A stretch of 64,000 bases of DNA from Eledone cirrhosa (Eukaryota). The notes under the pieces are model-generated. The model worked only from the letters and a program-made list of their open reading frames with translations, made no database searches and had not been told where the DNA came from. Positions 52,327-56,886 of the stretch are shown here, in pieces. The DNA lies in assembly GCA_964016885.1 (NCBI GenBank), contig OZ024756.1:12834001-12898000 (forward strand), written 5' to 3'. Both the position numbers and the translations under genes were made by a program. How positions within the stretch are numbered: the stretch's first letter is position 1; each line of letters opens with the position of its first letter.

Positions 52327-54463
52327 TTAACCTTTTAGCATTTACATTATTCTATATATACTATTGTATTTTTGTGGTAAAGGCTTTATATGAGATTTTG
52401 ATGTTATTTGTTTTGAGAACAATACCTTCCCTTGTGAATGGCTAGTTACGACCAATTTGAACAGAAAGATGTAGGAGAATTCTGGCTAGATTCGGCTGGT
52501 TTAAATGCTAAAGGGTTAAACTACTCTGTTGTGGCCTTAAGAACAATGATAAACAAAAGTGGACTAAAGCCTGAGCCTTGGTGTACCTAACTTGCAATGA
52601 ACTCATTGTCAATTGTCATCTTTGGCTTGTATGGCCTTCACAAGATAGCTTACTTAGGGCCCAACAGATTACAGAGCAGGGGCCTCTGTAAAAGGCCTTC
52701 TCCAGATCAACAAATATTAGATACAGAGGTTTGGCCAGGAGGAAGAGCAGTGCCTATGGTTGTTTATCAGAGGCTTCTAAAACTGGTGGAATAGTGGGCA
52801 AAAGATAGGCCCCATGGCTGTTTTCAGAGGACTCAAAGACTGGTGAAATTATGAGAGAAAGGTAGGCCCTATGGCTGTTTTCAGAGGACTCTAAAACTGG
52901 TGGAATAGTGCGAAAAAGATAGGCTTAAATCAGAGATACTTGCAACAAAGTGAACTCCACTAAAGGACCCTCAAAACCAGGTGTTGGTGGTGTTAAACTG
53001 AGCCACTGATTTAACCCTTTAGCATTTACATTACTCTGTATTTACTATTGTATTTTCGTAGTAAAGACTTCATCTCACATAATATCAAATCTATGAGATT
53101 TTGATATTATTTATTTTGAGAACAATACCTTAATATCAGTACGGGCAGCTGGTTATAGCCAGTTTGAACAGAAAAAGGTGAGAAAATTCTGGCTGGATAT
53201 GGCCGGTTTAAATACTAAAGTCTGTCATCCATGTAGACAGACCAGTGATAGTAAATTACTGGCTTAACTGGTTATGTATCAATTCTGGATGGATGAATGG
53301 CACAGTTAATGACAACACAACTTTAATTCAAGCTACAAGGAAATGGAATACTGCAAAACATTTTGACTGTAACACTTGTGATAATTGATTACAAAAATGA
53401 AACACTAAAAGCAGTTCAACATTGTGAAGAAAAATAATTGTTTCTATTTTAGGCACAAGGCCAGCAATTACCCCCAGTGTATTACTGGGTCTTTATTTTA
53501 TCGACCCCATAAGGATGAAAGGCAAAGTTAACCTCGGCGGGATTTGAATGAACTCAGATCATAAAGGGACGTAACTATGCTTCAAAGCATGGTGTCCGAC
53601 TCTCTACCGATACTGCCAATCCACCGCCAATTGAGAGGAAAAATAATAGGAGTGTATTTATATGGAGTTTTTTATAAATAACAAATCTCCTGATTGGGCA
53701 CCATATTAACATACAGCATTTCTTGGATATTCTAAGCCTGGCGAAACCCATCCCTCTACAGGCCTGAGTACAACAGATTTCTTCTAGAGAAGGATAGAAA
53801 ATGAGAGATATAGAGGAAGAATCGACCCCAGTACTGCACTGGTACTTTTTTTTTTTTTTATTCACCTTGAAAGGATGAAAGGCAGAGTTAACACTGGCGG
53901 GATTTGAACTCAGAGAACTGAGAGACAAATGACTACCATAACAGGCTATCTGACATTCTAAACTGTCATTTAACTGCCTTCACAAAACTTAGATATTCTT
54001 GGGTCCCAAATAATAGGGGGAGGAGAATAGGTAATTTTTCTAAGTTGTTTTTGTTGATTTTTTTTTTTTTTTTTTTTTTTTAAACAGAATTAGTCATCTA
54101 CTTTACATATTGAAACCTCAACCATTCTTGTTTATTTTATAACGTATGGGATTTCTAGTCATGTACTTTTTTGGTCATGTATAGTGTTTTTTAATGTATA
54201 AAGAAAATTAATTGTCACAGGAATGCTACTACTTAAAATAAAGGTTTGCCAGAGATAGATTAGCAAAATTCAATAAACAAGGGGGAGTAAAAAATTAATT
54301 AGAGAGAGGGTGGGAAAAAATCTGAAAAATTAATAATTGTGTGTGTGTGGGGGTGTGGGGGTGTGGGGGGGATTATTCAAGACCTGAGAGTAAACACCAA
54401 TAAAAACAGTATAGATAACATTTGAGATCCCATCATGCAGCATATATATATGGATATACTAAC

Positions 54464-54533
54464 CTTTGAGTTGGTCACATTAATAGTGTCACCAGAAATA
54501 TCCACAATGTCATGAGAACCAAGCTCCAGTTCT
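54464..54533 (-). CDS. STARD9: STARD9-like exon 2 (R-ELELGSHDIVDISGDTINVTNSK)
   Basis: TTTGCAG acceptor, GTTAGT donor, 70 nt, completes the phase-2 codon from exon 1. Confidence 0.9.
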
Positions 54534-54611
54534 CTGCAAACAGAAAAAAACAAACAATTCAATAATATTTTCAATATAGTTAAACACAGATTCTTCAAAA
54601 GGGTCTTTGGA

Positions 54612-55392
54612 ATAAATTGTTTCTACTATTGGCACAAGGCCAGCAATTACTCAGTACATTACTGGTACTTTATTTTATCGACCCCGTAAGGATGAAAGGC
54701 AAAGTTAACTTCGGCGGGATTTGAACTCAGACCATAAAGGGCCGTAACTATGCGTCAAAGCATGGCGTCCAATCCTCTACCGATACTGCCAATCCACTGC
54801 CCTGAAATAATTGTTTCTACTATTGGCACAAGGCCAGCAATTACCCAGTACATTACTGGTACTTTATTTTATCGACCCCGTAAGGATGAAAGGCAAAGTT
54901 AACCTCGGCGGGATTTGAACTCAGAATGGCAAGGGCCGTAACTCTATGCGTCAAAAGCAAGGCGTCCGACCCTCTACCGATAATTCACTGCCCTGAAATA
55001 ATTGTTTATACTTTAGGCACAAGGCCAGCAATTACCCAGTACATTACTAGTACTTTATTTTATCGACCCCGTAAGGATGAAAGGCAAAGTTAACCTCGGC
55101 GGGATTTGAACTCAGAATGGCAAGGGCCGTAACTCTATGCGTCAAAAGCAAGGCGTCCGACCCTCTACCGATACTGCCAATTCACTGCCCTGAAATAATT
55201 GTTTATACTTTAGGCACAAGGCCAGCAATTACCCAGTACATTACTAGTACTTTATTTTATCGACCCCGTAAGGATGAAAGGCAAAGTCAACCTCGGCGGG
55301 ATTTGAACTCAGATCGTAAAGGGACGTAACTATGCTGGAAAGCATGGCGTCCGACCCTCTACCGATACTGCCAATCCACTGCCCTGAAATAA
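54612..55392 (-). mobile_element. Four head-to-tail copies of the ~190-bp SINE
   Basis: Units begin AATAATTGTTT.TACT..TGGCACAAGG near 54612, 54806, 54997 and 55194. Confidence 0.92.
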
Positions 55393-55399
55393 TGTTATT

Positions 55400-55700
55400 A
55401 GATTAGAGTGTGTAGCTCGGAGATCAGAGTCACTCCAGGTAGAGAGCTGCTACTTCTCCGAATTGAGAGATCACAGCTCTGACACTATGGGCATGTTGGT
55501 TGGAATGTGTCAGGAGAGAATCACTGGACAGATTTCATGGTCAAAACCAACTGGTAGGAGACCCAGAGGTAGACCCCAAACAAGATGGTTGGATAACATC
55601 CCTGAACTTGGCTGGTCACACTTGAAGATCTAGCCAGATCAGTTGGAGATGGTTGCTTCAGACAAGACCCACTGGAGGGAGTGTTTGAGGACTCTGTGCC
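55400..55700 (+). mobile_element. RTE-like LINE C-terminal fragment
   Basis: YGHVG, R.RGRPQTRWLDNILNLA, DKTHWR-like motifs. Confidence 0.6.
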
Positions 55701-56535
55701 CAAGACCCTCTCGGGAATCAGTGGACAAAGAAGTTAAACATAGACAACATGGGGCACCTATGTGGTGCCACGACCACTCAAATTCCCCGTGGTGTTTAAT
55801 TGATAAAGTACATTGTATAATGTCTGGAGGTACACTATTCTTAGAAAATAAGTGTTATGGCAGGAGTGTTCAACGAGAGCTATATTGAGACAAAATGCCA
55901 ACAATCCACAGCCGACTCACAGTAAAAAAACTCCCCAAATTTAAAGAGTTTGGCTGATATTATATCATCTTGTCTAATTCCTCTTTTGAGATTGATCTTT
56001 CCACTTTCAGTGAAAAGTCTTGTATATATATATAAACACATGCACACACACACACATCATCATCAGGTTTAGCGTCCGTGTTCCACGCTTGCATGGGTTT
56101 GGACGGGGGTTTTCCCACTTGAGGCAAGAGTGGTTGTCTTGCTCGCATAGGACTGTCTGGCGGGTTTTCTACAGTTGGATGCCCTTCCTAACACCAACCA
56201 CATTTACAGTGTGGGGCTGGGAGGTTTTTACCGTGTTGCCTACACGGCCACATTACAGCGTGGACTGTCTGGCGAGTTTTCTACAGCTGGATGCCCTTCC
56301 TAACACCAACCACATTTACAGTGTGGGGCTGGGAGGTTTTTACCGTGTTGCCTACACGGCCACATTTACAGCGTGGACTGTGTGTTTTTTGTCGTGACAC
56401 CTACACGATCTCATTTGTTTCGGCCTGGATGTTGTGGGACCAACATAACTTTACATTGAAAGGGGCGGTGTGGGTGGGGTGGAGGTGGTGGGACGGGGGT
56501 GTGTTTTGATAGAGGTGCCTACTGACTGTAGTAGG

Positions 56536-56580
<45 letters not shown>

Positions 56581-56673
56581 AGGTGTCACCAAAAAATGTA
56601 TACACATTTCAACAGCATTCTAATAAATATTGCCTGTACAAGTAATCAAAGTATGTATACATTTTTGGGACAC

Positions 56674-56733
<60 letters not shown>

Positions 56734-56799
56734 CACAAACCCATGCTGGCTTGTGGAAAATAGCTGATAAAAACTATGGTGATATATATACGCACACAC

Positions 56800-56886
56800 A
56801 CACTATTAATGTGACCAACTCAATGATGGGATCTCAAATGTTATCTATACTGTTTTTATTGGTGTTTACTCTCAGGTCTTGAATAA
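56800..56886 (+). other. Inverted copy of exon 2 3' end plus start of intron 2, lacking the donor site
   Basis: 56800-56823 = reverse complement of 54466-54489; 56823-56886 = reverse complement of 54373-54436. Confidence 0.92.

Follow-up and report, generated by a model that had tools for sequence, protein, structure and literature searches.

An inverted partial copy of the exon 2/intron 2 boundary in intron 1 of a STARD9/KIF16A-type kinesin gene of Eledone cirrhosa: a probable product of templated repair

Results

Intron 1 of a kinesin gene of Eledone cirrhosa contains an 87-nt inverted copy of the end of exon 2 and of part of intron 2, which is probably the trace of a recent templated repair of a DNA break and probably has no selected function. 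The initial annotation of this DNA had offered a recent neutral templated insertion as its alternative; we favour that reading for the anatomy of the copy, its 87/87 identity to the donor and the species A letters it carries. All coordinates refer to the window, the whole 64,000-nt stretch analysed (assembly GCA_964016885.1, contig OZ024756.1, 12,834,001 to 12,898,000). Its relevant features are as follows.

56800..56886, + strand: inverted copy in intron 1, 87 nt; the + strand reads as the donor pre-mRNA sense and is hence antisense to the donor in the transcript (exact matches, two genomic places)
56800..56823, + strand: exon 2-derived arm; the opening 4 nt, ACAC, also extend the flanking CA repeat (microhomology)
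56823..56886, + strand: intron 2-derived arm; overlaps the exon arm by 1 nt and is followed by a single G absent from the donor
54466..54489, - strand: donor tract 1, 3' part of exon 2, codons (D)-T-I-N-V-T-N-S-(K)
54437..54465, - strand: uncopied 29 nt, with the final 2 exon bases, the GT donor and a short (TA)n; its DNA hairpin ranks 67 among 202 local 29-mers and is unremarkable
54373..54436, - strand: donor tract 2, intron 2 positions +28 to +91; organism B differs at 54426, 54427 and 54434 and has insertions at 54431-54432
54338..54371, + strand: GT/G-run tract just past where copying ends; G4Hunter 2.84, top 0.02% of the 25-mers of the window
56793..56803, + strand: left (CA)n flank, overlapping the opening 4 nt of the copy
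56888..56903, + strand: right (AC)8 flank, as read in the sequence
56901..57165, no strand assigned: single arm of a MITE-like repeat that is high-copy and often fold-back, beginning a few bases from the palindrome centre of other copies
62120..62166, - strand: exon 1, coding part, from gene mapping
54464..54533, - strand: exon 2, 70 nt, of the STARD9/KIF16A kinesin-3
16194..16310, - strand: exon 3, downstream of intron 2 (38,153 nt)

Structure and uniqueness of the copy

Exact matching showed that the reverse complement of 56800-56823 equals 54466-54489 in exon 2 (24/24) and that of 56823-56886 equals 54373-54436 in intron 2 (64/64). Base 56823 can be assigned to either arm, which gives the element a length of 87 nt. 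This mismatch-free complementarity had been described in the initial annotation together with the omission of 54437-54465, the 29 nt that hold the splice donor and read AG/GTTAGT... on the minus strand, and exact matching bears out both. The copy had been placed ~2.3 kb upstream of the donor in the pre-mRNA; the measured distance to the nearer donor end is 2,310 nt. A BLAST search of the window with both regions gave no third copy of donor or element, in agreement with the earlier account. When 54365-54545 was searched against the whole genome of the animal (3.0 Gb), two matches were obtained from two candidates, namely the element and its donor. For the genome, the E value of the 64-nt arm by itself is 6.5e-24, so a chance match is ruled out.

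The host gene

By protein comparison, the host is a STARD9/KIF16A-type kinesin-3 gene of an octopod, located on the minus strand. Octopus bimaculoides LOC106874278 is 64% identical to the large exon of the host and clusters with the 'StAR-related lipid transfer protein 9' of O. vulgaris and with proteins of O. sinensis; for exon 2 the match to LOC106874278 is 22 of 25 residues. Protein searches with exon 3 found no coleoid sequence; the coleoid match came via the large exon. Altogether 25 exon pieces of the gene were mapped. The 70-nt exon 2, the 38-kb intron behind it and the frame shift caused by skipping, as previously annotated, all hold, intron 2 measuring 38,153 nt and the reading frames giving a stop in exon 4 when exon 2 is skipped. 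Exon 2 is present in 9 of 12 Octopus gene models, all reading T-I-N-V-T-N; the other 3 begin later, in exon 3, which is not evidence of exon 2 skipping. An Rfam search gave 17 matches, every one under the gathering score and located on microsatellites and a SINE-like stretch.

Insertion site and junctions

The element sits inside a CA tract, and its opening 4 nt (ACAC) fit tract and donor alike. One nucleotide is common to both arms at the inner junction, while the far end shares none and carries one extra, untemplated-looking G. No poly(A) or poly(T) tail was found at the element, whose flanks are CA repeats; within a CA repeat a target duplication is indistinguishable. Copying ends one base short of the G-run tract at 54338-54371 (+ strand). 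With the ACAC end as the starting point of synthesis, the + strand would be the template strand, and G-quadruplexes are described as blocking polymerases. Positions no more than 5 nt from a tract with a G4Hunter score of at least 2 make up about 1% of the window, and the proximity of the G-run was noticed post hoc. Among 14 fetched copies of the MITE-like repeat, 7 are self-palindromic around the centre that lies a few bases from 56901, a count that gives no frequency because 7 of the 14 had been chosen for two opposite hits.

These junctions are consistent with the following course of repair. A DNA break would have arisen in the (CA)n tract at about 56800, and its ...CACAC end would have paired through ACAC (4 nt) with positions 54486-54489 of the + strand, at a distance of 2.3 kb. 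After synthesis of 24 nt, a forward slip of 29 nt may have occurred at the 1-nt microhomology (alternatively, 29 nt may have been deleted later). A further 64 nt would then have been synthesised until the polymerase halted at the G-run tract of the template, and the product would have been rejoined to the other end. Hairpin skipping was considered as the source of the 29-nt gap and rejected, the DNA fold having -0.7 kcal/mol (rank 67/202). The GT donor may have been spared by chance, since a random 29-nt gap covers the GT in 7 of 49 placements (14%), or by survival, in that a copy masking the donor would have led to frameshifting exon skipping and been purged. No empty site was seen, the contigs covering the donor side only; the readings of deletion, filler and timing are accordingly indirect.

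Uniqueness, size, a donor less than 3 kb away, microhomology and the lack of poly(A) are traits of proximal repair-mediated duplications, which have been catalogued in vertebrates by Pace, Sen, Batzer and Feschotte in 2009 (PMC2671141). Their available text gives 824 human cases with donors within 5 kb, a median length of 147 bp, microhomology or filler and no poly(A), some of them polymorphic; the donor was less than 3 kb away in 753 of 1,136 cases. Partial exon/intron donors account for 4/824, and one exon, of ACSBG2, is present as an inverted copy in an intron of that gene. The E. cirrhosa copy likewise measures at least 50 bp, is non-tandem (>50 bp from its donor) and has a single genomic donor, and of the five features tested four are present, the fifth being the empty site. 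Unlike the cases in that text, it consists of two pieces 29 nt apart; chimeras of two donors are given there in 20 cases, with second donors 289-3,432 bp off or on another chromosome. The acceptor also differs, being a microsatellite beside half a MITE and not the middle of an intact transposon, with no empty site seen. As it stands, we regard the element as a further case, in an octopod, of the short repair-type duplications known as a class from vertebrates; our literature search found no paper on such repair copies in cephalopods.

An RNA template was also considered. A patch reverse-transcribed from the gene's own pre-mRNA, with the 29-nt gap as a jump of the enzyme over a spliceosome-bound donor, would account for an unspliced exon/intron junction from which just the donor region is left out, and RNA-derived repair patches have been described as class 2 templated sequence insertions (PMC5110952). 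These resemble the element as short templated patches with end-joining features and no target duplication or poly(A). However, those presented in that paper come from distant loci and are argued to be RNA-derived, whereas the donor here is 2.3 kb away. The microhomology is found at that end of the copy which DNA-templated synthesis on the + strand would predict, the stop is at a + strand G-run tract, and the gap lacks GT..AG bounds. An RNA origin is thus extremely improbable.

Comparison with a relative and with the same species

Contigs of four of the 23 listed sequencing runs (X1, X4, X5 and X6) were compared over 54090-54608, the donor side; the left half of this interval is a high-copy repeat. 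X4 had no cover at 54396-54608, X6 gave a single 33-nt piece, and RNA coverage of exon 2 was not found; the comparison has no bearing on expression or editing.

The identity of 87/87 between copy and donor limits their divergence to at most 3.4% (95%), and the element looks young by its sequence. In organism B (X5) a single contig covers 54389-54608 with 21 substitutions and 7 gaps, and the alignment fails left of 54389. Within the 64-nt arm, B shows 3 substitutions among the 14 listed (54426, 54427 and 54434) and 2 insertions. The element carries the species A letters at all 3 of these positions and lacks the insertions of B. Exon 2 of B has one difference, a synonymous one at 54491. No contig resembling the copy was seen in B, where the single contig crosses the 64-nt arm; this is one relative, seen in contigs only. 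The differences of B cluster at 54426-54453 and so may reflect few events; a single event in B's own lineage would weaken the dating.

X1, the best of the runs from the same species, gave a 302-nt contig at depth 11.5 that spans 54374-54608 without a difference and is unbroken through both ends of the shared arm, its depth being constant across 54396-54608. If the copy were present on both haplotypes, the 31-mer graph should branch at the shared arm, and no second contig on that arm was seen in X1, which leaves the copy unconfirmed outside the assembly. Since the copy was seen neither in X1 nor in the contigs of B, a single haplotype may carry it; an assembly error is less likely. X1 may also lack it through a different specimen or haplotype, loss of short private links, or filtering. 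The private 31-mers of the copy connect to words of microsatellites and MITEs through short links only (117 and 47 words). Graph cleaning by assemblers may drop such short links, particularly where depth is halved.

An assembly or consensus error, with the copy absent from the animal's DNA, would fit the unbroken X1 contig and the lack of any copy-bearing contig. Yet contigs show presence and not absence, the specimen or haplotype may differ, and the private links of 117 and 47 words are possibly lost to graph cleaning. Two pieces joined at a microhomology and ending at a G-run tract form the signature of a polymerase, and the window has no assembly gaps. We therefore consider an artefact quite improbable.

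Local background

In the 1.02 Mb around the window, the element and its donor are the sole two-copy pair at least 98% identical with a spacing of 500-5000 nt. An excess of 10 local pairs at 500-5000 nt over 0.7 expected had suggested that local templated copies are common here, which proved misleading. Of 24 other local pairs, 6 were searched genome-wide, and 4 of these 6 are dispersed repeats; the dispersed repeats among local pairs include a 243-nt inverted pair at 19864/23013. The remaining two, with identities of 82% and 85% and a spacing of ~440 nt, are direct copies of greater age that occur nowhere else in the genome; they lie in or just past the host gene, which suggests that local copies arise and decay here. 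Enrichment of microsatellites at the ends of local pairs was rejected as well (20/100 ends, versus 59/280 for distant pairs).

Nearby copies covering at least 15 exon bases were found at 2 of 50 exon ends of the host gene, and in an inverted orientation at 1 of 50, the element itself. For a 116-nt donor placed at random within 5 kb, the chance of spanning a splice donor is ~1.2%; this case was chosen from many windows, so a rare coincidence of this kind is expected to turn up. Against templated repair stand the local rarity of such copies, the low expectation of ~1.2% for a splice-donor span, the possibility that the differences of B are a single event, and the absence of enrichment at microsatellite ends.

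Predicted RNA pairing and editing potential

Equilibrium folding predicts a duplex of about -143 kcal/mol between element and donor. In the predicted fold of 54300-56950 (2.65 kb) the longest helices are those of 64 bp (-107 kcal/mol) and 23 bp (-36 kcal/mol), the latter exonic. The initial annotation had proposed an ~87-bp duplex that clamps both sides of the 5' splice site with the donor bulged out. The geometry and the predicted pairing agree with this, but two helices of 64 and 23 bp are formed instead of one, and the uncopied loop is predicted to fold into a small hairpin in which donor positions +4 to +8 are base-paired, so the splice donor would not be simply free.

It had further been suggested that the element serves as an editing-complementary sequence (ECS) or as a splicing switch. 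This found no support: the intron arm is unconserved in the relative, no compensatory change was seen, the spacing is 2.3 kb, and the kinesin recoding work, as far as its available text goes, is silent on KIF16/Klp98/STARD9. An old selected long-range structure, either a conserved ECS or a splicing switch before the 38-kb intron, with identity kept by selection or gene conversion, would explain why the donor is bracketed exactly; skipping shifts the frame, and formation of the duplex is predicted to leave positions +4 to +8 paired. In contrast, the identity is perfect, with no G-U or compensated pair, and in B the alignment of the intron arm is lost left of 54389 while exon 2 has one synonymous change. 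The check proposed earlier, presence and compensatory change in relatives, turned out negative as far as the contigs of one relative go, since no B copy was seen and the donor arm of B carries 3 substitutions plus 2 insertions. With an inverted copy at 1/50 exon ends in addition, such a structure is very unlikely.

Known intronic ECSs of the GRIA2, GRIK2 and FLNB type (PMC6724681) are likewise intron segments complementary to the coding sequence of the same pre-mRNA within 2.5 kb. The likeness is one of geometry only; the duplexes presented in that paper are imperfect, whereas this one is perfect, pairs both sides of the donor and is unconserved in the relative tested. Inverted Alu pairs (PMC4066801) also form near-perfect inverted pairs in one transcript as by-products of DNA events, and editing of the element would similarly depend on distance, but the element is single-copy, 87 nt long and has one coding arm. 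In human inverted Alu pairs the decay scale of editing is given as ~800 bp, with editing ~20-fold lower at 2400 bp (PMC4066801). Its application to octopods is an assumption. Given the predicted pairing of the element with exon 2 and intron 2, low and incidental A-to-I editing in carriers is possible.

The repair copy might already act as a newborn ECS, such that in carriers the motor-domain codons within the duplex are measurably recoded by ADAR, AAT at 54481-54479 becoming Ser or Asp, for instance, and ATT becoming Val. The copied stretch of exon 2 contains 10 adenosines, 9 of them recoding if edited, and the predicted -143 kcal/mol duplex includes the longest helix of the 2.65-kb fold. The spacing of 2.3 kb falls inside the 2500-nt search range used in mouse (PMC6724681). 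Four other mollusc-type proteins (P0001, P0124, P0128 and P0154) have Ser where this protein has the Asn of 54481, and one edit there would restore Ser, the commoner residue. Against this, the exonic helix has merely 23 bp and the ~20-fold loss at 2400 bp in human Alu pairs (PMC4066801) would apply; the 9 of 12 Octopus models with exon 2 uniformly read T-I-N-V-T-N, which, being genome-derived, has little bearing on editing. The available text of a preprint on motor recoding in cephalopods has 0 occurrences of KIF16, Klp98 or STARD9, no STARD9/KIF16 term occurs in a published editing supplement (PMC8382921), and our literature search found no report on STARD9 editing in cephalopods; further published site tables may list the gene. 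Measurable recoding by the copy is accordingly unlikely.

In its fullest form, this reading would have a repair accident produce a perfect antisense clamp that is tolerated for lacking the donor and still segregates, with ADAR recoding the alleles of carriers only, Asn to Ser included; we regard this scenario as improbable. If it were true, it would suggest that local inverted repair copies give rise to new recoding sites more generally. The origin of new coleoid recoding sites is open, and studies of site context largely ignore introns (PMC8891338). Should carriers show allele-specific recoding, a segregating single-copy duplex would amount to a natural experiment with and without the structure. 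Intron 1 also has nearer and longer inverted pairs, such as a 165-bp hairpin of 98% identity at 60813-61171.

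Sequence around exon 2 of the host gene

Exon 2 of the STARD9/KIF16A gene carries an AAT codon for Asn at window positions 54479–54481; at the aligned position, other STARD9 proteins of the mollusc type have Ser, among them P0154, which is likely a decapod transcript. A single A-to-I edit of this codon is predicted to change Asn to Ser. A SINE-like repeat with a unit of about 195 nt is present four times in tandem (54610–55393); this array starts upstream of the acceptor of exon 2, at a distance of about 75 nt. Also in intron 1, a fold-back repeat was located at 60813–61171, with arms of 165 nt that are 98% complementary and separated by a spacer of 29 nt. 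In dsRNA from this fold-back, the arms are far closer together than in the pairing of the 87-nt inverted exon 2 copy.

Direct copies and other repeats

Two direct copies that are unique in the genome were found in or near the host gene. The first, of 67 nt with 82% identity (L015:3722–3788 and L015:4229–4294), lies with both members inside a single 640-nt intron of the gene, the end of one copy being 10 nt ahead of an acceptor. The second, of 89 nt with 85% identity (L019:9885–9973; partner 444 nt away), is located just beyond the last mapped exon.

Intron 2 contains an inverted pair of 243 nt at 19864–23255, with 97.5% identity and a separation of 2.9 kb. Because a genome-wide search with the 243-nt sequence gave more than 1,500 candidates at 98–99%, its two arms are likely the termini of a young DNA transposon. 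The same intron holds a tandem repeat of about 6 kb (42350–48400) with strong skew and open frames of at most 1,948 codons. Elsewhere in the genome (G000:C17:12704657–12715159, minus strand), one open frame encodes 3,501 amino acids with a zinc-finger-like motif (CNYC) at its start, and presumably resembles the octopod giant C2H2 genes.
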